Program-made: the position numbers and the translations under genes | NCBI GenBank assembly: GCA_036676395.1 | Contig: JAKFCY010000002.1 | Coordinates: forward strand, 1,888,001 to 1,952,000 | Origin: Bdellovibrio sp. | GTDB lineage: Bacteria; Bdellovibrionota; Bdellovibrionia; Bdellovibrionales; Bdellovibrionaceae | Length of the DNA: 64,000 bases | Direction: 5' to 3' | Notes under the pieces: model-generated | What the model saw: only the letters and a program-made list of their open reading frames with translations | Told to the model about the DNA's origin: nothing | Databases searched by the model: none | Shown: piece after piece, positions 20,310 through 30,877 of the stretch | Layout of the letters: every line of letters starts with the position of its first letter | How positions within the stretch are numbered: the first letter of the stretch is position 1

Positions 20310-20510
20310 TAAATGTAGCTTTTTCCAAACTGCTGACAATTATTGTAACTGCTTGGAAGGACTGGTTTTTCCCTCTGGAGGCTCAATACCTAGGTGTTTA
20401 GCTCAATTGAAAGAAGGTGACGATGATTCGGTCATCCTTGAAAAAAATACTTGAACAGCATGCCTTGGTGCCATTAAGTTAGAACATCCTAATGTCTATA
20501 TATTGTCGGT

Positions 20511-20597
20511 GGCTCGGTGATGAAATTGGTAGACTTGCTAGACTCAAAATCTTGTGGGAGCAATCCCGTGTCGGTTCGATTCCGACCCGAGCCACCA
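20511..20597 (+). tRNA. tRNA-Leu (CAA)
   Basis: GGCTCGG/CCGAGCC acceptor stem, anticodon loop CT-CAA-AA, long variable arm GGGA-GCAA-TCCC, GGTTCGATT T-loop, encoded ACCA. One U-U mismatch in the anticodon stem. Confidence 0.93.
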
Positions 20598-20614
20598 AAT
20601 TTTATCTCTAAAAC

Positions 20615-20646
20615 AAAAAAAAGACGGCCCTTTGCAGAGCCGTCTT
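20615..20646. terminator. Terminator hairpin (U-tract on minus strand; may also serve the tRNA)
   Basis: AAGACGGC-N10-GCCGTCTT, preceded on the plus strand by an A-run. Confidence 0.75.
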
Positions 20647-20686
20647 AGTGTGAAGAACGCAATTGGCGTTGCGCTATTTGAATGTA
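20615..20686 (-). ncRNA. Candidate ~70-nt sRNA behind a sigma28-type -10 element
   Basis: GCCGATAA (20700-20693), internal hairpin AACGC/GCGTT and a terminal terminator; no gene-sized ORF; weak -35. Confidence 0.3.
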
Positions 20687-20793
20687 CTTATATTATCGGC
20701 TACTAAAAAAAAAGCGAAAGTCCACTAGACTCAGTTTCTGTTCACTTAAGCCGCTGCAGTAACCAAATACTATGTTATTTACAAAAAACACAG

Positions 20794-23700
20794 TTAATTA
20801 CCGACTTGAACCCAGGCCGCACCATCGCAGTATTTAAAACGGCTTGTTGCTGTAAAATACTGGTATTGCCCTGGAGCCCCAATTGGCGCAACACAACCCA
20901 CTCCCCCAGCACCTGGCGATGCCCCCATCGCAAAATAAGTTGTTCCTTTGCAATATTTCAGTGTCGATTGAACTGCATCGTAAATCACTTCACCATTTTT
21001 TGTACAAGCACCCAGCGAGACTGGCACTATATATTCAAATATAACCAGACTGCTGTTATCGGCTATGTAGCCTGTGTTGCCCGAAAAAGTCATATCTTTC
21101 GGAAAGCTGATCCCTGACGCCGTTGAATCCAACATCACTGGCGAGGCCGGAGTCGTGATATCAACCGTCGCTAATAATTTTGGCGAACCATTCACCAAAT
21201 GAAGATAGTTACCCACAATTCGCATCGCCCGCACATCCGTAAAACGGGCATCGACTAAACTTCCCGTAATTGATGGCACCGTCGGTGTTGTAATACTCAC
21301 TACCGTTAATTTTGTATTGGTACTTCCAACTACAAAAAGATTGTTACCCGAGATGACAACAGAGTCACAACTTTCAAAACCTGCATCTGACAGCGTAGCG
21401 ACAATGGTCATTGAAGCCGGATTAGCGATATTCACGACTTGAAGATCCTGCGAACTAGTGCACACATAAGCATAGTTACCAGAAATCGCAAAATCCATCG
21501 GGTTTACGATAGTAGCACTATCGTAAGTGACTTCGGTTGGCATTGAAGCAATTGACGTCGCCGAAAGTTTGTCAGCACCAAAACCATCCCGTATCCAGAA
21601 ATGATAATTTCCGGCAGTCTTACCTTTAAGCCCCGAACCAGACTGATAAATATCTGTGACAAACGACATCGCTGCTGGATTTGAAAAGTTAACTACCGCC
21701 CCCTGATAACCAGAGTTTGCTGTTCCAACAAAAGCATAGTTGCCTGACAAGGCCACACTTCTTCCCTCTTTAAGAGCGCCGTTATAAATCGTCGAAAGCA
21801 AAGCTGGGCTATCTGGATTAGAAACATTGACTGCCGTTAACCGTGAAGTATTCGCACTGATCACATAAGCAGTTGTGCCCGACACCGCTACAGAGTTTAC
21901 ACCCGATAGCCAACTGGCTTCATTGTACGGGTTATTGATTTGCCCTGGAATTTGTTTTGGGCTGATATCCAAAATCTGAAACACTCCGCCCGTTGTGACT
22001 TGATAAACATAATTACCAGAAACTTGCATCGTGGCAACTGATGCATGCGGCGAACCAGAAACTCGTCCGCCGAGTTCGACAGCTTGATTAGCTTTTAAAA
22101 CGCCCATGCCCATATAGTTGTAATCAGAATAATACGAAAAATAAAAATAATTACCGTTACCGGACATCTGACTGATGGAAGCAATCGGCGAATTGACCAC
22201 AAGTGCTGGCGCTGATGGCGTTGAAACATTAATTGTCGTGACTCCGGTTGATGTCGAGACGTAAATGTAGTTTCCATTTTTATAAATAGATTTCGGCGAC
22301 GGCAAATCAGTCGCACTCTGATAATAGCCAACTAAGGTTGGCGCATTGGGTGTAGCAATACTGATAATCACCATTGAGTTTGACGAATTACACGACACAT
22401 AAAGATAATTTCCGCTACGAACCATGCGGCTACAGGTCCCCAGCGCCGCATGACTAACTTGCGTGACATAGGTTGGTAATGCTTTATTGGTAATATCAAC
22501 TACGGTCAGCCCATTAGTTTTAGTCACATAAGCGTAATTTCCCGATACATATACAGCTTTGGCACTCACAAGGTTAGTGGCATCCAAAAGACGGCCACTG
22601 ACTGTCGGACTTGCCGAATTTGAAACATTCATGACGGTTAAATAATTTGAACCGACAACATAGGCGTAGCCTGATAAAGCAAAGACATCACTCGGCGCCG
22701 GAATATTTGTCGCATCTTGCCTGTAGCCTAAAAAAGCCGGAGCTGTCGGATTTGAAATATTAATTATAGAAAAAATATTTGAAGTTGCAGCTGTCGCATA
22801 AGCTAAGGTTCCAGAGACGGCTAATGAAACTGTTCCATTTAAACGCGCAATAACCGGAGCTGTCGCAAGTAAAGTTGCACTTGTCGGGGTTGATATCGAA
22901 TAACTTCGGATTGTTGTATTTGCGCCGCCTGAATTGGTCACCAGTGTCGTACCAACGATAGCAGGTAGACTGCCGGTATATGAATTGCCGACTGTCGGCG
23001 ATACAGGATTTGTGACGCTGACAATTTTACCATTCGTGTACAAATAAGAACCCTTGGCCGCTATGATTCCGCTGTATGCTGCATTGGTAAAATTGGCTGT
23101 CACTGCAGGGCTGGCTTTATTTGAAATATCTATGATGGTTAATTTATTAGAACCTGCATTGACATAAAGATAATTGCCGACCACAGCTAAACTATCAAAG
23201 GTACCTAAGTTAGTTGCATCTGATACGCTTCCCACCACCGTCGGAGATGCTGGATTGGAAATATCTAATATAGAAAGTGTATCGGTTGAATTAATTCCTG
23301 CATATAAATAATTTCCTAATATATACATCGCATTTGGCTTTGCTCCGAGTGTAGCTGTGGCAATGACGGCTGGTGCTGCTTTATTGGCGACGTCAATAAT
23401 TTTTATTCCAGTACTTATTGCCGCATACAAAGTGTTTCCAGAAACTTCTAAATCATCCACCGAACTTAATCCACTTAGCGTTGATACAAGCTCTGGTAAA
23501 TTAGGATTTGTAGCTACATCCACAATGGCCACTTCGCCCCAGTTTATCATCGACATATAGGCATAACTTCCGTCAAAAGCCACATCGTTGGCGCTGTAAT
23601 TAAAAGTGTGATTACTTTTATACTGACCTTTTTGCACAGGTGTTGTGGGAGCACTAATATCAATCACACCCAACTGCTCGGTAGACCCACCCAATAACAC

Positions 23701-24933
23701 GGCGTAGGTTCCAGACGCGGCCATCTTTGATACCCAAAGATCAGCACCGGGCAACTCTGCAACAGGTGGTAAAGTTAAAACCGGCTGCAGTCCCATATCC
23801 ATAACATGAACCGTGTCATTGCCAGGGTTTAAACACACCGCACGCTGAGAATCAGCACCGGCATGAGTACACGAAGCTCCGCTCGGCCCGGGAATTCCTA
23901 ATTGATAAATTGGATTCGCAGGCGCAGCTGAAGTGATATCAAAAACAGATATGTAATTGGTGCTATTGCGGCCATTACTTTGTACGCTGATGGCGTAATT
24001 TCCATACCGCGCCATATCTTTTGGATCCTCTAAACTGCTATCAGTCCAACTAGCTAACAGCGATGGGCTAGCCTTATTCGTCACATCGACAATAGTCATA
24101 TTTCCACTGGCCCCAGCTTCTGAAAGTACAGCTACGCGATTTGCGAAACTTCTGACTGCTTTAGCATAGGTATTAGAAAAATTTGAATCGGCATAAGTTC
24201 CAACAACCGACGGTGCGGTTGGCGTAGTTACATCCACCACTTGAAGTGATCCAACTGTGACGACATAAGCATAATTGCCTTCAACATCAAGAGCCCGCGC
24301 ATTAGCAATTGGCAAGGCCGCAGCAAGAGTCGGTGCCGCCGGGTTTGAAACATTGACGATCACTAATTTATTTTTGTTACCATCAAGTGCATAGGCATAG
24401 CTACCTTTCACCACTAACGCTTCAATATTGTAAAAGCTTGAACCTAAGTTTGTTGAATCGGTGTAAGTTCCGGCAACAACCGGAGCCGCAGGGTTTGCAA
24501 TATTGACGATAATAATTTTTTCAGCTTTGCGAATATATAAATAATTGCCAACGATGACACTTCGATCTGCATCAGTGAATGCTGAATGTGTTAGTGTTCC
24601 TGTTGTCGTGATACTATTAATGTTTGAGGAGTTAAGCACTACCAGTTTATCACCAGTAATCACATACACATTTGTTCCTGAAACGGCTGGCGCCACAGGG
24701 TTAGAAATTAAAGTTGTACGCGTGTCTTCTAATTGCGATCTAAAATTATAACCACCATATTTAACGCTCTTCCAATTCGTACCATCACAATATTGCAAAT
24801 CCGATGCACTGGCATCCCAGCGCATCGCTCCTGCATCACCAGTTGGTGATGCACAAACGGCAGATGCAAATTCTGCACTCAGCAAACATACGCCGGCTAG
24901 AAAAATTTTAATTAGGATCGGCATCAGCTTCAT
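20794..24933 (-). CDS. Secreted LVIVD-repeat multi-beta-propeller protein (1379 aa)
   Basis: Signal peptide; more than 20 repeats of type GNYAYV...L.IVDISNP.AP.LVG; Cys-pair C...G..Y/W...YC.G..W modules at both termini. Confidence 0.85.
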   Translation of the reverse strand: MKLMPILIKIFLAGVCLLSAEFASAVCASPTGDAGAMRWDASASDLQYCDGTNWKSVKYGGYNFRSQLEDTRTTLISNPVAPAVSGTNVYVITGDKLVVLNSSNINSITTTGTLTHSAFTDADRSVIVGNYLYIRKAEKIIIVNIANPAAPVVAGTYTDSTNLGSSFYNIEALVVKGSYAYALDGNKNKLVIVNVSNPAAPTLAAALPIANARALDVEGNYAYVVTVGSLQVVDVTTPTAPSVVGTYADSNFSNTYAKAVRSFANRVAVLSEAGASGNMTIVDVTNKASPSLLASWTDSSLEDPKDMARYGNYAISVQSNGRNSTNYISVFDITSAAPANPIYQLGIPGPSGASCTHAGADSQRAVCLNPGNDTVHVMDMGLQPVLTLPPVAELPGADLWVSKMAASGTYAVLLGGSTEQLGVIDISAPTTPVQKGQYKSNHTFNYSANDVAFDGSYAYMSMINWGEVAIVDVATNPNLPELVSTLSGLSSVDDLEVSGNTLYAAISTGIKIIDVANKAAPAVIATATLGAKPNAMYILGNYLYAGINSTDTLSILDISNPASPTVVGSVSDATNLGTFDSLAVVGNYLYVNAGSNKLTIIDISNKASPAVTANFTNAAYSGIIAAKGSYLYTNGKIVSVTNPVSPTVGNSYTGSLPAIVGTTLVTNSGGANTTIRSYSISTPTSATLLATAPVIARLNGTVSLAVSGTLAYATAATSNIFSIINISNPTAPAFLGYRQDATNIPAPSDVFALSGYAYVVGSNYLTVMNVSNSASPTVSGRLLDATNLVSAKAVYVSGNYAYVTKTNGLTVVDITNKALPTYVTQVSHAALGTCSRMVRSGNYLYVSCNSSNSMVIISIATPNAPTLVGYYQSATDLPSPKSIYKNGNYIYVSTSTGVTTINVSTPSAPALVVNSPIASISQMSGNGNYFYFSYYSDYNYMGMGVLKANQAVELGGRVSGSPHASVATMQVSGNYVYQVTTGGVFQILDISPKQIPGQINNPYNEASWLSGVNSVAVSGTTAYVISANTSRLTAVNVSNPDSPALLSTIYNGALKEGRSVALSGNYAFVGTANSGYQGAVVNFSNPAAMSFVTDIYQSGSGLKGKTAGNYHFWIRDGFGADKLSATSIASMPTEVTYDSATIVNPMDFAISGNYAYVCTSSQDLQVVNIANPASMTIVATLSDAGFESCDSVVISGNNLFVVGSTNTKLTVVSITTPTVPSITGSLVDARFTDVRAMRIVGNYLHLVNGSPKLLATVDITTPASPVMLDSTASGISFPKDMTFSGNTGYIADNSSLVIFEYIVPVSLGACTKNGEVIYDAVQSTLKYCKGTTYFAMGASPGAGGVGCVAPIGAPGQYQYFTATSRFKYCDGAAWVQVGN

Positions 24934-24935
24934 AC

Positions 24936-27900
24936 TTATCTGATTCCTAATTTTTTCTCGATCATTCGCAGACGATTTTCAAGTTCATTATTTTTTTCTT
25001 TAAGCTTGCCGTTTTCTTCATGCAATTCTTTAATTGAATTAATTAACGGTGCGATCAGATATTGATACTTTACGGCTTTGTAACCACTTTGACGGTCTGT
25101 CACAACAGCGTGTGGAAATACCTGTTCTAATTCTTGCGCGATAACCCCGGCATCATATTGGCCATTGGCTTTCCATTGGTAAGAATAGCCATTCAATTTT
25201 AAAACGGATTCTAAACCTGAAATTAGCTGAATATTTTTTTTAAGTCTGCCATCTGAAGTTGAAATAAAACTTGTGGCTTTAACACTGCCCGAGACTTCTA
25301 ATTTTTCTGACGGCGTTGTCGTGCCAATTCCGACATTGCCTGAACTATCAATTCTTAGCCTTTCTAAACTGTTAGTTGAAAAAGCAAGAACCTGTCCGCC
25401 CGGAGAAAACATACCCGAATTATGAACGCCGTTAAAAGTATATACCGGCGCAGCCGCAGTTCCAGAAGCGACATTAATTTTTACGCCGTTTGTCGCTGCA
25501 GAAATCATTGAACCATAACCAAAAGAAAACATTGTTGATCCATTAGCGACTAATGCAAACGAATCGGCATAGTCTTTATAAAAACCAGTATTGGTATCGG
25601 AAGCAAAAGCAATTGAAGGTGCACCTACAGTGCCATCTGAAACTTTAAGTGCACCCGTCATCGCGACAGAGCCGTCTTTCATAAAATCTCCGGCGACAGC
25701 CAACGCGGCTGGTGCCCATGCTGACCCGTTATAAGCTAACACTTGTCCAGATGTCGGCGCTGTCGCCAGCACACTTCGACCCTGAATACCATCTACTGTC
25801 AGCGAAGCTGAACCGGAAACCGACGACACATCACCGGCAAACGCAGGAAGCCTAGCCGCGGCCAATGTTCCGGTAGCACTTGCACTGCCTAAATTTAAAC
25901 TTGATACCGTTGCAAATCCACCCAGGCCTAAATTCGTTCGCGCAGTGGCACTTGAACTTAAATCTGATAAATTATTTGTTTTAACTAAGTAATTTCCTAA
26001 CACGGTACTGCTTGCCGGAACATAACCCAAAACCTGTGCAATGCTTGCAGCACTTGATGTGATTTTGTTTGTGAAGACTGTGTAATCTGCGTTGGATAAT
26101 AAACCCGCAGTTACAGAGCCTGCACTTGCCAATGGAATATTTAATGTATGAACTCCATTAGCTGTTACAAACAGCGGTGCTGTTCCTGTTATACCATGAG
26201 CAAAAGTTTGCGTACCTGAAGTTGAGCCGTTGAATGTTGTAATTCCACTGCCTGCAACACCGAATGCAGACCAGCTTGTGCCGTTACAAAATTCCACATT
26301 TTCTGAATTATATCTTAATGTTCCAGCAAAGCTTACAGCACAAGTTGCAGATTCCATACTGATTTGCAAACCACCCGATACTGATAATTTTGTCACAGGT
26401 GTTTTGCTTCCAATCCCGATATTACCTGTAGCAATTGTCGCACCTGAGCCGTTGAGGCTGGTTCCAAAAATAAGATTACCTATATTTAAAGTTCCTGACG
26501 ATGTCGCTGCGACGGTATTGATATTATTACCGATAACAATGTTATTTGCGCCTGTTGTTAAATTACCTGCTGAATAGGCACCAATCACAATATTATTATT
26601 TGCGCCGGTTGCAATATTTGTAGCAGCTTCATAACCGATGATTGTGGTGTTGCTGACATCCGAATTATTGCTCGGGCCATTACCAGCACCTGCTCCAACG
26701 TAAACATTTTGATGGCCTGTTTTATTTGTTCGCCCGGCGTTTAATCCAATACCTACGTTGTTAGTGCCTGACGTATTATTGTTTAGCGCACTTACTCCTA
26801 CCGCAGTATTATAATATCCAGTTGTATTATAGCTAAGCGCCGATCCACCCACTGCGGTATTTTCATTTCCCGTAGTGTTGTTCCATAATGTTTCAGCGCC
26901 GATGGCTGTATTAAATTGCCCCGAGGTATTTGCCTGTAGAGCATACCAACCAAAGGCTGCATTTTCGTAACTTGTAACTGATGATTCAAGTGTACCAAAA
27001 CCAAAAGCTGTATTTTGCCCGCCGTCTTGATTTGCTGCCATCGAATTTACACCGAAGGCTGTGCTTTCAGAATTATTTGAATCTTCAACTAAAGGCCATG
27101 AAGTTCCAGAGCCGACAAATAATCCACCATTTCCGGTATGCACATGAACGATGTCATTTAACGTAACTTGTGAACCACTAGTGACACGGCCTTTACTATC
27201 TACTGTGACTTTCGTATATTGTGCTCCGCTTGCTACACCAGAAAAAGTCATTAAACGCGCCTCAGAAATAATTCCGGTAGCACTTGCGCTTCCTAAATCT
27301 AAACTTGATACCGTGGCAAATCCACCTAAACCTAAATTCGCGCGTGCTGTTGCTGAACTTGTTAAATCAGATAAATTATTTGATTTTAAAACGTAATTAG
27401 AAAGTGTCGTCATGCTGACTTTATTCATCAGAGTAGTGTAATCAGAATTTGAAATTAAGCCTGCAGTTACAGCACCTGAAGAAGCTAAAGGAATATTTAA
27501 TGTGTGCATACCGTTTACCGTCACAAAAGCAGGAGTCGTTCCGGCTGTGCCATTCGCAAAGGTTTGGGTACCCGAAGTTGAACCGTTGAATGCTGTAATT
27601 CCACTGCCTGCAACTCCGAATGCTGACCATGTTGATCCATTACAGTACTCTACGTTGCCAGAATTATACCGCAAAGTTCCCGCGTAGCTTAGCGCACAAG
27701 GTGCAGATTCCATACTGATTTGAATTCCGCCTGAAACAGAAAGTTTTGTGATGGGTGTGTTTGTGCCGATGCCGACAGTTCCTGCAGAAGTGATTCTTAG
27801 GGACTCATTTCCACCGCTCAGGGTCTGAAACCGTATGTCACCACCGTTACCATCGGTATTATTGGTAATTTCTAATGTGTTGGCCGAATTCATGCGCATC

Positions 27901-29828
27901 ACATCGCGATTTTCAGTGTTAGCTGCATTTTTAAAACGAATACTGGCGTCATTATTCATAACAATGTGTCCACCGCTCATGAATAACCAACCAGTTAAAG
28001 TCTGATTACCTTCTACATATAAAGGTGTTGTCGGATTAACAGTGCCGATGCCCACATTACCACTTGCGTAGTTGATCGTCGTTCCCGACGTTGTCCATTG
28101 CGAACTGACCGCACCACTCGCTTGCGGTGTATACCCTAACGCTGTAGCGACATCACTAGCTGATAATTGTGCACCACTTGTGACACGGCCTTTGCCATCA
28201 ACAGTTACTTTTGTATATTGTGATCCACTTGTTACATTTGCAGAACTTGGTAAACGTGCTTCTGCTAATATACCTGTTGCACTTGCAGAGCCTAAATCTA
28301 AACTTGATACTGTGGCAAAACCACCTAAACCTAAATTCGTGCGCGCTGATGCACTTGAAGATAAATCACTTAGATTGTTTGTTTTAACTAAGTAATTTCC
28401 TAAAGCCGTACTGCTAGCCGGAGTGTATCCAAGAACTGAAATAACTGAAGCGCTAGTGGCACTCAGCTTATTAGCGAATGTTTGATAATCAGTATTTGAA
28501 ATTAAACCTGCAGTGACTGATCCTGCGGAGGCGAGCGGAATATTTAACGTGTGCACTCCGTTAACAGTCACGAACGCTGGCGTCGTGCCCGTTGTGCCAT
28601 TTGCGAAAGTTTGTGTCGCTGAAGCTGAACCATTTAAAATAGTGACCCCAGCGCTGGCCGCATTGGCCGGCGTATAACCTAAAGCTGAAACAACATCGCT
28701 TGAAGAAATTGTGGTTATCGTTTGGCTGGTCCATGACAAGTTGCCGCTGCCATCAGTTGTTAAAAATTGGCCACTTAGACCATCATCGCTTGGAAAAATT
28801 AAATTATAACCAGCTGATAGACTTATCGGCGCCTGCAGTCTGATCGAAAAAGCCGTACTAGGCTTAAAAATATCGACATAATTTGTTCTTGTACTGTTTG
28901 CGTAGACATCATTTGCCCAGATGTTTCCTGAAGAATCGCGAAGCAGTAAAGTATTTGCCGTATTTGATACCGCTGCCGCTGCAGAAATTTGCGCCGTGAT
29001 TTGCGTAGCTACCGCAGATGAACTGACCGGAGCATAACCTAAAGCATTTGCGATTTCTGTGCTGCTGACTGACATCTTAGTTTTAAATTCGGCGTAATCA
29101 GCAGCCGTTAAATAACCATCACTCGACATTGAAGCCACGCTGATTGAAATCACCGGCGCACTTGCAGATCCTGAAACCATGATGGGTGCAGTGCCTGAAA
29201 CAGAAAGTAGACCATCTGTGCTACTACTGCCTACAGCCACACAACCGAAAGAGGCTCCGTTAAACTGTAAGGCTTGCGAGACAGAGCAGGTTGGTATCGA
29301 AGTCACTTGGACAAAATCAAGATCGGTTTTTCCGTTCAATTGAGTCGAATTTTTAGCGTACATTGCATACGGCACATGATTAATATTCATTGCCGGTAAT
29401 GTTTGCCAACCAAGACCATCATGAAATTGCATCACAATTTTGCGCAGATCATTTGCGGCCGGAATATAAGCCGGAGGCCCACCTGCAGCACACGAAAGCG
29501 CTGTGCCATCGTTATTAAATACATCAGAAAAATTCACGCTACCGCTTACGGGAAAAGTTTTTATTCCCGAGCCCAAAGAAAAATTAACTAAACCGCCGCT
29601 GCCAGCCATATTAATGGTATTAAAATTTTCTGCATAGAGAATGCAGGCTCCCAAAGGATTTAAAATAGTAAAACGAAAATTTACGTTGGTTGATTCTAGA
29701 GGCGTGCCATCTGGCTTAATAATTTTTGCCTGATACGTGGTGTACATGCCTGCGGCTTGCGTTGAAAACGATAACAGCATAGCTATAGCAAAACTGAGGA
29801 CAGTGGTTATTTTTTTGAACATTCCCAT
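24936..29828 (-). CDS. Mosaic adhesive trimer (MAT)-type fibre adhesin with C-terminal S74 intramolecular chaperone
   Basis: Likely start ATG 29828 gives signal peptide MGMFKKITTVLSFAIAMLLSFSTQA. Typical Bdellovibrio N-domain TYQAKIIKPDGTPLE...C.LY.E; GNVGIGT fibre motifs; NTAVG beta-roll repeats; S74 domain TSDGRLKKNI...GVIAQE...VKYQYLIAPLINSIKEL plus coiled coil. Confidence 0.9.
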   Translation of the reverse strand: MGMFKKITTVLSFAIAMLLSFSTQAAGMYTTYQAKIIKPDGTPLESTNVNFRFTILNPLGACILYAENFNTINMAGSGGLVNFSLGSGIKTFPVSGSVNFSDVFNNDGTALSCAAGGPPAYIPAANDLRKIVMQFHDGLGWQTLPAMNINHVPYAMYAKNSTQLNGKTDLDFVQVTSIPTCSVSQALQFNGASFGCVAVGSSSTDGLLSVSGTAPIMVSGSASAPVISISVASMSSDGYLTAADYAEFKTKMSVSSTEIANALGYAPVSSSAVATQITAQISAAAAVSNTANTLLLRDSSGNIWANDVYANSTRTNYVDIFKPSTAFSIRLQAPISLSAGYNLIFPSDDGLSGQFLTTDGSGNLSWTSQTITTISSSDVVSALGYTPANAASAGVTILNGSASATQTFANGTTGTTPAFVTVNGVHTLNIPLASAGSVTAGLISNTDYQTFANKLSATSASVISVLGYTPASSTALGNYLVKTNNLSDLSSSASARTNLGLGGFATVSSLDLGSASATGILAEARLPSSANVTSGSQYTKVTVDGKGRVTSGAQLSASDVATALGYTPQASGAVSSQWTTSGTTINYASGNVGIGTVNPTTPLYVEGNQTLTGWLFMSGGHIVMNNDASIRFKNAANTENRDVMRMNSANTLEITNNTDGNGGDIRFQTLSGGNESLRITSAGTVGIGTNTPITKLSVSGGIQISMESAPCALSYAGTLRYNSGNVEYCNGSTWSAFGVAGSGITAFNGSTSGTQTFANGTAGTTPAFVTVNGMHTLNIPLASSGAVTAGLISNSDYTTLMNKVSMTTLSNYVLKSNNLSDLTSSATARANLGLGGFATVSSLDLGSASATGIISEARLMTFSGVASGAQYTKVTVDSKGRVTSGSQVTLNDIVHVHTGNGGLFVGSGTSWPLVEDSNNSESTAFGVNSMAANQDGGQNTAFGFGTLESSVTSYENAAFGWYALQANTSGQFNTAIGAETLWNNTTGNENTAVGGSALSYNTTGYYNTAVGVSALNNNTSGTNNVGIGLNAGRTNKTGHQNVYVGAGAGNGPSNNSDVSNTTIIGYEAATNIATGANNNIVIGAYSAGNLTTGANNIVIGNNINTVAATSSGTLNIGNLIFGTSLNGSGATIATGNIGIGSKTPVTKLSVSGGLQISMESATCAVSFAGTLRYNSENVEFCNGTSWSAFGVAGSGITTFNGSTSGTQTFAHGITGTAPLFVTANGVHTLNIPLASAGSVTAGLLSNADYTVFTNKITSSAASIAQVLGYVPASSTVLGNYLVKTNNLSDLSSSATARTNLGLGGFATVSSLNLGSASATGTLAAARLPAFAGDVSSVSGSASLTVDGIQGRSVLATAPTSGQVLAYNGSAWAPAALAVAGDFMKDGSVAMTGALKVSDGTVGAPSIAFASDTNTGFYKDYADSFALVANGSTMFSFGYGSMISAATNGVKINVASGTAAAPVYTFNGVHNSGMFSPGGQVLAFSTNSLERLRIDSSGNVGIGTTTPSEKLEVSGSVKATSFISTSDGRLKKNIQLISGLESVLKLNGYSYQWKANGQYDAGVIAQELEQVFPHAVVTDRQSGYKAVKYQYLIAPLINSIKELHEENGKLKEKNNELENRLRMIEKKLGIR
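25845..26427 (-). repeat. Fibre internal long repeat, copy C
   Basis: e.g. gcacttgcactgcctaaatttaaacttgataccgttgcaaatcc at ~25876, near-identical to copies at ~27280 and ~28279. Confidence 0.85.
27165..27783 (-). repeat. Fibre internal long repeat, copy B
   Basis: TKLSVSGG.QISMESA.C...TQTFA.G...HTLNIPLAS...NNLSDL...LGLGGFATVSSL.LGSASATG...QYTKVTVD.KGRVTSG. Confidence 0.85.
28165..28650 (-). repeat. Fibre internal long repeat, copy A
   Basis: Same TQTFANG...HTLNIPLAS...LGLGGFATVSSLDLG...YTKVTVDGKGRVTSG block, conserved at DNA level. Confidence 0.85.
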
Positions 29829-29835
29829 GTTTAGA

Positions 29836-29863
29836 TTATCGTCCGAAACAAAAAACCGCTTAA
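29836..29863 (-). promoter_or_regulatory. Sigma28 (FliA)-type promoter of the fibre operon
   Basis: TTAAG-N15-GACGATAA-N7-ATG(29828). Confidence 0.6.
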
Positions 29864-30076
29864 AAAACCAAATCGCCTGTAGACGCTCTAAAAGTATATT
29901 GGTAACTAAGCGCACCCAAGTAAGCAGTTTTCTATTTAACCCTTTGGTCCTGTTCAGCAGAGAAAACGATGCTTCTGTGTGAGACACTCAGATAGTGGTT
30001 TCCAAGCCATTGCCAAGTTACCATTTTTTTTCGAAAGAATTACTCTTTCAACAAAAATGAGTTAAGTTTGAAGACA

Positions 30077-30877
30077 ATGACTAATCAAGCCACTGAAGAT
30101 TACTTAAGAATTTTACAGAATGAATTTCAACAACGTAAACAAAAGAATAAAAAATACTCGTTGCGTGCCTTTGCTAAATTTCTTGGCGTAAGCCATGCTC
30201 TTTTATCATTAGTATTTCTTAAGAAAAAAGGGCTCTCACTTAAGATGGCTGAAAAAATCAGTGCGAAGCTGGCCTTAAGCCATTTAGAGCGTAATATTTT
30301 TGTCAGTAGCGTTGAAAAATGTTTTTCTCGCAGCGCCAATAAAAAAACCAAAGCTGGTCAGGTTTTAAAAGAACTACAAAAACAAAAACAATTCAAATCA
30401 CTGACTCAAGATACGGTTAGCCAGATTGATCATTGGGCTTATGTGGCCGTGTTCGAAGCTATTTACAGCAAAAAAGCCCTGACTACGAAAGAGCTTTGTT
30501 TCTTCTTCGATCAGAAGCCTTCACTGATCATAAAAGTTGTAGCCTATCTGCAAGAAATCTCAGCCATTGCTGATGAAAATGGCACATTTTCGGCTATTTC
30601 TTCATCCTTACAAACCAGCAATGATATTCCGGCTAAAGCCATGGTTAGTTATCACATTTCAATGGCCCAAAAAGCCATCAGTGCAATCCAACAACAGCCT
30701 GTGCATATGCGCGAATTTCAAAATGCTATCCTAACAGTCAACCAAGAGTCTTTAGGCGAAGCTAAAAAAATGATTCGTAATTTCATCCATGACTTTAACA
30801 CCCGTTTTTATGTGGACAACGATACCAGCCAGCTTTATTCCTTGTTTGTCAGTTTTTTTAAAATGGGAAAAGAATAA
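30077..30877 (+). CDS. TIGR02147/DUF4423-family HTH protein
   Basis: RKQKNKKYSLRAFAKFLGVS...LS, IDHWAYVAVFE, YH...REFQNAIL...LYSLFVSFF; ATG at 30077. Confidence 0.88.
   Translation: MTNQATEDYLRILQNEFQQRKQKNKKYSLRAFAKFLGVSHALLSLVFLKKKGLSLKMAEKISAKLALSHLERNIFVSSVEKCFSRSANKKTKAGQVLKELQKQKQFKSLTQDTVSQIDHWAYVAVFEAIYSKKALTTKELCFFFDQKPSLIIKVVAYLQEISAIADENGTFSAISSSLQTSNDIPAKAMVSYHISMAQKAISAIQQQPVHMREFQNAILTVNQESLGEAKKMIRNFIHDFNTRFYVDNDTSQLYSLFVSFFKMGKE

Follow-up and report, generated by a model that had tools for sequence, protein, structure and literature searches.

A MAT fibre gene with an S74 tail and a coupled LVIVD propeller gene form a conserved, mobile pair in predatory bacteria

We have examined a 64,000-nucleotide (nt) stretch of the genome of a Bdellovibrio sp. 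(assembly GCA_036676395.1, contig JAKFCY010000002.1, positions 1,888,001 to 1,952,000), referred to here as the window, in which a gene for a MAT fibre of the S74 subgroup is followed by a gene for a secreted protein built of LVIVD repeats. We find that the coupling of these two genes is real, conserved and mobile. What sets the LVIVD protein apart from most of its repeat family is a cysteine (Cys) module that occurs three times, at the ends of the chain, and a related module is found in the stalk of the fibre. We propose that the propeller protein is physically docked, through its three modules acting together, on the end of the fibre that S74 processing exposes; we hold this reading tentatively, putting it a little short of an even chance. 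It differs from the mechanism put forward in an initial annotation of the window, according to which the two proteins would associate through the module that they share, giving a branched apparatus with about four propeller heads.

Results

An S74-type MAT fibre gene runs directly into an LVIVD gene

The two genes and the parts of their products on which the argument depends are as follows.

24936..29828 (-): MAT fibre gene, S74 subgroup, 1630 amino acids (aa), with the ATG at 29828 as likely start
29301..29780 (-): MAT N-terminal domain of the fibre, residues 17-176 (NCBIfam NF053851, Bdello_MAT_N)
25257..25868 (-): mature fibre tip, residues 1321-1524, with the predicted S74-exposed tail ...EKLEVSGSVKATSFIST
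24939..25256 (-): S74 intramolecular chaperone/protease region of the fibre, beginning at the catalytic Ser1525
20794..24933 (-): LVIVD-repeat multi-propeller protein gene, 1379 aa, with signal peptide (open reading frame and Pfam)
24772..24855 (-): accessory-type Cys module N, residues 27-54, right after the predicted signal-peptide cut (50.7 bits)
21064..24711 (-): LVIVD repeat region, residues ~75-1290, ~27 repeats of ~45 aa (Pfam, motif spacing)
20935..21006 (-): accessory-type Cys module C1, residues 1310-1333, degenerate (19.4 bits)
20812..20895 (-): accessory-type Cys module C2, residues 1347-1374, 5 residues short of the C-terminus (43.2 bits)

The fibre open reading frame (ORF) occupies 24936..29987 on the (-) strand, being open upstream to a GTG at 29987, and its TAA stop ends at 24936. 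The initial annotation placed the LVIVD start at 24933, and the sequence bears this out: 2 nt separate the fibre stop from the LVIVD ATG (...AGA TAA GT ATG...), and an AGGA lies 11 nt 5' of that ATG. At its N-terminus the fibre matches Bdello_MAT_N (E 1.9e-47, 161.1 bits, cut-off 60), and at its C-terminus residues 1525-1575 match Pfam PF13884, Peptidase_S74 (E 4.2e-15, 56.2 bits, cut-off 22), the catalytic SDxxxK motif reading SDGRLK at residues 1525-1530. Between them lie several copies of the capping-loop motif V-G-G/N-pi-x-x-P-x-x-x-L, for example VGIGTNTPITKL and VGIGTTTPSEKL, and the capping-loop regions can be aligned to Bd2133, Bd3182 and related PDB chains. The product is predicted to be a trimeric surface fibre that undergoes autocleavage.

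The LVIVD protein belongs to PF08309 (E 2.9e-89, 292.6 bits against a cut-off of 20.2, in 10 stretches), and its ~27 predicted blades are compatible with the 'about four propeller heads' envisaged initially. Its signal peptide is predicted to be cut between ASA and VC, and the mature chain starts one residue before the first Cys. Pfam and NCBIfam scans of the protein find no MAT_N, in agreement with the initial annotation, and no other anchor family. Choice-of-anchor B (TIGR04312) scores 70.3 bits against a cut-off of 100, making the protein a relative of that family and a non-member by the curated threshold. Weak, below-cut-off Pfam matches to the lactonase, SBP56 and MthilOx families are attributable to the propeller fold.

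The pair recurs in Bdellovibrionota and in Micavibrio-like Alphaproteobacteria

A search of 60 relatives with the LVIVD protein returned a single homologue, that of G018. We then turned to the module: a profile of its accessory type (A1) matched 52 of 401 genomes of the phylum, and the 22 regions around the strongest matches were fetched along with that of G018. In 12 of the 12 Bdellovibrionota genomes inspected (G000, G018, G303, G185, G399, G195, G217, G266, G288, G333, G375 and G209), LVIVD genes with terminal modules immediately follow an S74 fibre gene and are read from its strand, either overlapping it or separated from it by at most ~20 nt; in G399 the LVIVD gene heads a tandem of three. 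Every one of the 12 upstream proteins exceeds the Pfam threshold for PF13884. Since some pairs have flanking genes in common, they represent ~7-8 distinct contexts. The initial annotation had proposed searching for such pairs with a module profile and had named a lack of conserved co-occurrence as grounds for abandoning a link between the proteins; the recurrence seen here, together with that in Micavibrio-like Alphaproteobacteria, removes this objection.

LVIVD proteins are not the only module proteins found in this position. Behind other S74 fibres are genes for proteins of 133 aa (G387) and 120 aa (G306) and for a 427-aa WD40-like propeller (G104), as well as S74 mini-fibres that carry the module in place of a MAT N-domain; in G310, for example, a 516-aa S74 mini-fibre with a module at its start is encoded behind an S74 fibre.

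Among Micavibrio-like Alphaproteobacteria, 20 loci were found by means of LVIVD module peptides, and 10-11 of them have an S74 fibre gene immediately upstream. In two of these loci (L015 and L019) a first S74 fibre gene is followed by one for a three-module LamG protein, then by a second S74 fibre gene whose product has the module at its N-terminus, and lastly by the LVIVD gene. In each of five whole alphaproteobacterial genomes (1.6-2.5 Mb, 1-2 S74 genes apiece) one locus holds all of the module matches whose context can be read, and these loci take in seven of the seven strong S74 matches; one further module match falls at a contig start. A locus search with the Micavibrio LVIVD protein itself yielded just two loci, both weak and unrelated.

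The fibre tip and the LVIVD gene are exchanged together

Comparison with G018 delimits a unit that spans the junction of the two genes.

20837..26258 (-): variable 5.4-kb cassette, comprising the distal ~440 aa of the fibre (tip and S74) and the LVIVD gene minus its last 14 codons (blast against G018)

Blastn, and blastp against L003, show the locus in G018 to be syntenic to that of the window, with flanking proteins 92-99.8% identical, flanking DNA 89-95% identical and the first ~1190 residues of the fibre 88-90% identical. Over the cassette no nucleotide similarity to G018 is found, and the full-length identity of the two LVIVD proteins is 31%; the second breakpoint sits within the last LVIVD module. 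A third allele, present at this locus in G209, encodes an LVIVD protein of 772 aa that is 31-34% identical. In distant congeners the locus cannot be traced, the flanking protein at 30068..30877 having a best match of 27% identity in one of five genomes.

Partner fibres end, at the predicted S74 cut, in one of two tails. Type I (...VVGDIQ[YF]TGTITD[VI], followed by SD) is the ending of nine Bdellovibrionota fibres, that of G018 among them, and of almost every alphaproteobacterial partner, and type II (...EKLEVSG[SN]VKAT.FIST, followed by SD) is that of the fibres in the window, G209, G266, G387 and G104; S74 fibres of this genome outside the partner set have other endings. In a quick IQ-TREE phylogeny a branch with SH-aLRT 93 has the LVIVD proteins partnered with type II tails together on one side, requiring one change, and 6 of 500 label shuffles gave a value as low. 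In that tree the LVIVD protein of Micavibrio aeruginosavorus (P0012, 1440 aa) nests among Bdellovibrionota sequences, beside that of G288, a placement suggesting that the cassette has moved between predator phyla.

The Cys module has a stalk form and an accessory form

Two further copies of the module lie in the fibre.

27627..27698 (-): fibre-type Cys module 1, residues 711-734 (module hidden Markov model (HMM), 65 bits)
26271..26342 (-): fibre-type Cys module 2, residues 1163-1186 (motif and HMM), 12 nt short of the G018 cassette breakpoint

All five module instances quoted in the initial annotation were located, the fibre having two of them and the LVIVD protein three, at its ends. Its regular expression misses the middle LVIVD copy, in which three residues separate C from G, a copy that the HMM still detects at the score given above. 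Shuffling either protein 20,000 times gave no strict module match. Genome-wide, the strict pattern occurs in 17 ORFs, namely the LVIVD protein, 15 large MAT paralogs and an 850-aa weak relative of the fibres. Since 15 of the ~24 MAT paralogs (counted by phmmer) have the module, it is not specific to the window fibre, and the idea that it is exclusive to this fibre and its LVIVD partner is ruled out.

Two subtypes can be told apart. The fibre subtype, C-x4-AGTLRYNSG-x-VE[YF]CNG-x2-W, lies within the stalk. The accessory subtype, C-x2-P-x-G-x2-G-x3-[YWF]-N-x6-[QK]YC[DN]G-x2-W, to which the LVIVD copies belong, is clear in this genome only in the LVIVD protein, two fibre-like proteins being intermediate (19-26 bits). 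N-terminal copies begin 1-2 residues past an AxA signal-peptide site and last copies finish at the C-terminus. A fibre-module HMM built with no LVIVD sequences finds the LVIVD N-module (31.3 bits, E 5.7e-8), and an accessory HMM ranks the LVIVD protein first and 16 fibre proteins next, above noise. Judged from these profile matches, the two subtypes are homologous, and the kinship claimed initially for the modules of the two proteins therefore stands. A Cys-less look-alike of the module is present in the fibre tip (residues ~1340-1360, within 25868-25257 (-): ...TSGQVLAYNGSAWAPA...), which suggests that the disulphide module may be a variant of a commoner fibre hairpin.

The module appears to be new to the databases that we searched. 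Segments of either subtype have no match in Pfam at E <= 10 or in NCBIfam at E <= 1, the best hit of the module profile among PDB sequences has an E of 0.36, and three tandem modules have no tblastn match in 50,697 phage records. In a protein atlas the best value was 0.87, and a lead at 0.86, below the trust level, was to a cluster bearing in part the label PF26696, 'phage tail like trimerisation region'.

The homology of the modules is what would favour docking of the propeller protein on the fibre stalk, by contact between its modules and the two fibre-type modules, so as to form a branched fibre; the four partner fibres that belong to this genus (G000, G018, G209 and G399) indeed have 2-3 stalk modules each. 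The other eight of the 12 partner fibres (G303, G185, G195, G217, G266, G288, G333 and G375), however, show no fibre-type module that reaches 15 bits, and of the MAT paralogs of this genome that do carry it only the window fibre has an LVIVD partner. In addition, every layer of a trimeric stalk already contains three modules. We therefore consider stalk docking improbable, and the part of the initial annotation that relied on the shared module for docking is not sustained: the feature that the partner fibres have in common is the S74 end.

Accessory modules come in threes

The module profile matches 3,929 representative proteins out of 1.84 billion at E <= 0.001, 2,079 at E <= 1e-10 and 449 at E <= 1e-30. 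Among the best 150 of the 3,929, exactly three modules are present in 149 and six in the remaining one. Ranking by summed score favours chains with many modules, and chains with four or five would outrank those with three, yet there are none in the best 150. The arrangement varies within this set (one N-terminal module and a tandem pair, all three in tandem, two N-terminal and one C-terminal, and others). We refer to three modules in one chain as a triad, and the window LVIVD protein belongs with the triad proteins, as it has three modules, the first after the signal-peptide cut and the last at the C-terminus. Full-length homologues of the LVIVD protein (28-58% identity), which include proteins of Bdellovibrio spp. 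and Micavibrio aeruginosavorus, behave similarly: ~20 of ~20 clusters retain the N-terminal and the last C-terminal module, and in 11 the degenerate middle module reaches 15 bits or more. The remaining LVIVD proteins lack modules, and some have other anchors instead (PGF-CTERM, a type IX secretion system (T9SS) tail or a prepilin signal).

The material carried between or beside the modules is diverse. Among 54 three-module proteins scanned, 37 have Laminin_G_3 and 10 have Lcl_C, the others having propeller or lectin domains; S74 was found in none. Proteins of one ~130-aa family (13 clusters) have nothing besides a signal peptide and three modules, in which six Cys are invariant. The 133-aa protein of G387 is of this triad-only kind, and its gene begins 9 nt behind that of a type II S74 MAT fibre. 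An AlphaFold2 (AF2) model of it is all-beta (predicted local distance difference test score (pLDDT) 81.3, predicted template modelling score 0.61) and finds nothing in the PDB at E <= 0.001 with Foldseek; against 48,161 chains with VIA-align its best Z is 3.7, to designed propeller fragments. For the LamG accessory protein of L015, modelled from a four-row alignment, mean pLDDT was 32.

The constancy of the modules against changing cargo (LVIVD, LamG, WD40-like or none) also bears on whether the LVIVD protein might act outside the mature apparatus, either as a factor for maturation or assembly of the fibre, in the manner of Tfa, or as an enzyme acting on the prey surface. Phage tail-fibre genes often have genes for assembly chaperones next downstream, an order that the window resembles, and the weak lactonase, SBP56 and MthilOx matches could be read as pointing to an enzyme. 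These matches, however, are below cut-off and come from the propeller fold, the fibre has an S74 chaperone of its own, and a protein of 1379 aa with ~27 blades is unlike known fibre chaperones. A role of this sort is, in our estimation, very improbable.

Transcription signals and transcripts

Signals that flank the pair are listed below.

29836..29862 (-): sigma28-like promoter match, TAAG-N15-GACGATAA (consensus match), ending 7 nt before the fibre ATG
20621..20646 (-): terminator-like hairpin of 11 pairs followed by a T run, after the LVIVD gene (strong)

The initial annotation placed both genes behind one sigma28-type promoter. The match to the sigma28 consensus before the fibre ATG is confirmed; it marks a candidate promoter, from which the two genes might be transcribed together. 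There are 34 such matches in the genome, and none lies ahead of the other 23 MAT paralogs. In a soil metatranscriptome (X1, available as contigs only), pieces 90-99% alike cover both genes (20500-30100), and no contig spans the junction between them, the bins at 24352-24993 being without cover. Matches at this level indicate that a relative was present in that soil sample. One X1 contig omits 27386..28662 and has 27 other letters in its place, probably owing to the internal repeats of the fibre.

Other fibre loci

Several further loci are recorded here as observations in their own right. In a scaffold of a Roseovarius sp., a non-predatory marine alphaproteobacterium (L087, 61-1388 (-)), a gene for an S74 protein is followed directly by one for a 96-aa protein with one module. 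The partner fibre of G288 (L061:797-12451) is an unusually large, mixed MAT-like protein of 3885 aa that also has RHS repeats and an MG2 domain. At G000:C2:1080028-1094066 (L072 and L073), two S74 MAT fibres with a type II tail (...VKATSYLYT, followed by SD) have stops overlapped by genes for secreted proteins of 488 and 487 aa, each with two fibrinogen-like GGGWT domains (PF00147, NF040941) and no canonical Cys module. By their domain content, these are a second kind of fibre-coupled, lectin-like gene. At G000:C2:1080028-1108219, five consecutive MAT fibre genes lie on one strand, some of them 4-39 nt apart.

Discussion

We present evidence that the locus is a two-gene cassette, and we suggest that it would encode an S74-autocleaved MAT fibre and a translationally coupled, Sec-exported LVIVD protein that may serve as its head. 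Three modules of one chain might pack as a single pseudo-threefold unit, equivalent to a ring of three fibre chains that contribute one module each, and by way of this unit the propeller protein could sit on the three-fold fibre end that S74 cleavage bares. The propeller protein would then be an exchangeable, distal, prey-binding head, in the way that gp38 is for T-even long tail fibres. The recurrence of the pair, the joint replacement of fibre tip and LVIVD gene, the two conserved tails and the existence of six protein clusters that join LVIVD repeats and S74 in one chain all speak for this reading. Two further features of the sequences are consistent with such a fit. First, the number of modules per chain of the accessory proteins matches that of the stalk, which has one per chain and three per trimer. 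Second, in 28 of 30 uncleaved stalk junctions the first module Cys lies 12 residues past the capping loop, and the catalytic Ser of S74 lies 12-13 residues past the same loop in 24 of 29 tails (12 in the window fibre). The Ser and the module Cys are thus spaced alike from the capping loop, so that the cleaved fibre ends where a module would otherwise start, and a module opens the mature accessory chain.

We used the G387 pair (alignments A3 and A4) as a minimal homologous stand-in, because the triad there is a single chain, and predicted the complex of three fibre tips with residues 30-133 of the triad-only protein; three runs without controls gave 0.84, 0.00 and 0.01, a median of 0.01 against a mark of 0.32, a result that speaks neither for nor against binding. 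Several observations weigh against the proposal. The tail types were defined after the partners had been viewed, and most loci were fetched through module matches, so the association of tail type with partner is post hoc and biased; linkage alone could also explain why LVIVD clades and tail types group together. In the six clusters in which LVIVD repeats and a C-terminal S74 are fused in one chain without Cys modules (P0039, P0040, P0060, P0074, P0092 and P0110), LVIVD is N-terminal to S74, the opposite of the gene order in the window. (P0039 comes from a Patescibacteria metagenome-assembled genome and is labelled a tail-fibre-domain protein.) Finally, some triad genes stand apart from fibres. 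Around three small module genes of G339, the ~20 kb fetched contains no S74 gene. A scan across all phyla, selected by a DNA pattern for QYCDGTNW, gave 33 loci, in six of which no ORF of 90 aa or longer scored at least 25 bits for the module; S74 is directly upstream in 12 of the 27 others and absent in 13, two being cut by a contig end. In four of five genomes with stand-alone triads, whose completeness is unestablished, no S74 domain was found, and in some organisms the triad must therefore function independently of an S74 fibre.

These last observations also speak for regarding the LVIVD protein as a co-expressed but physically independent adhesin or lectin, which is secreted and acts alone or stays on the cell envelope through binding of its triad to a different surface component. 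On this account the triad would be a small, self-contained domain clasping the N- and C-termini of its own chain, and the link to S74 would reflect shared regulation, a common function in prey contact and joint transfer. Triad proteins alone in 13 of the 25 loci that can be determined, their occurrence in genomes where no S74 is found, the isolated genes of G339 and the mostly lectin-like cargo are what it would predict, and we regard it as a serious possibility, if not a probable one. It leaves unexplained, however, why LVIVD genes lie behind S74 fibre genes in all 12 Bdellovibrionota genomes and across their several contexts, why the distal end of the fibre and the LVIVD gene are replaced jointly, why S74 mini-fibres without MAT_N start with the module, and why a secreted protein made of three modules and nothing else should be encoded behind a fibre. 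Docking on the cleaved end of the fibre is the reading that we favour, with the reservations above.

If docking of this kind occurs, it could extend beyond the window. We can imagine plug-and-socket fibres in two predator phyla, in which the end unmasked by S74 accepts any protein tagged with a triad, be it an LVIVD multi-propeller, a LamG lectin, a WD40-like propeller, a bare cap or a second fibre, and in which swaps of tip-plus-head cassettes alter prey range and cross phyla. This wider scheme is speculative, and we think it rather unlikely to hold in full.

Were the heads indeed separate and exchangeable, the specificity determinant of S74-type fibres would be the neighbouring gene, and studies of prey range, fibre structures and deletion designs would have overlooked it. 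To our knowledge, MAT fibres are the only prey-recognition proteins described in Bdellovibrio, and single MAT fibre deletions have little phenotype. The analysis also defines an unannotated domain family of 3,929 representative clusters that has no model in the copies of Pfam and NCBIfam searched, and the rule of three per chain, together with kinship to a stalk element of trimeric fibres, yields a clear structural hypothesis. The presence of the same cassette in Micavibrio and Bdellovibrionota points to an exchange of prey-contact hardware between unrelated predators.

Comparison with known systems

The closest known relatives of the window fibre are the S74-subgroup MAT fibres of Bdellovibrio bacteriovorus HD100, with which it shares the conserved, beta-rich N-terminal domain that follows the signal peptide, capping loops (VGIGTxTPxxKL) and a C-terminal S74 domain with SDxxxK; in the main text of the report on those fibres they bind prey by their own tips (Caulton et al. 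2024, PMC10769870). The coupled downstream gene for a putative binding protein and the Cys module are features of the window that the same text does not describe, and the words 'propeller', 'accessory', 'operon' and 'LVIVD' are absent from it and from the searchable text of its supplement, one scanned supplement lying outside this coverage (PMC10769870). In the accessible part of a 2026 review, too, MAT fibres are presented without partners (PMC13689555). Searches of the literature on LVIVD, S74 or propellers in Bdellovibrio, and on LVIVD or tail fibres in Micavibrio, found nothing relevant.

Other phage and bacterial systems share parts of this design. S74 fibres and spikes, such as the endosialidase of K1F and pb1 of T5 (the latter the subject of PMC4690869), have the same autocleaving C-terminal chaperone, Ser-Lys dyad and mature trimer end. 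The many Lcl_C (DUF1566) and LamG secreted proteins of Alphaproteobacteria and other groups often share three accessory-type modules with the window protein; their cargo differs, and about half are not beside an S74 fibre. We know of no report of a second protein on an S74-cleaved fibre end, and a literature search found none. LVIVD repeats were reportedly described by Adindla and colleagues in 2004 as forming cell-surface beta-propeller proteins. The window protein is of the same repeat family as these and the choice-of-anchor B proteins, but it ends in Cys modules where its relatives have PGF-CTERM, a T9SS tail or a prepilin signal.

Several phages pair a long tail fibre with a separately encoded distal adhesin or assembly protein (gp37 and gp38 of T-even phages, S and U of Mu, and Stf and Tfa of lambda). 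As in gp37/gp38 and Stf/Tfa, the second gene of the window lies directly 3' of the fibre gene, and the distal end of the fibre is swapped together with it, which in phages constitutes a host-range cassette. Unlike these pairs, the window fibre has S74, and the LVIVD protein has no match to the gp38 or Tfa families, Pfam and NCBIfam giving only LVIVD. The likeness is therefore one of layout, in which a fibre and the gene that follows it change together.

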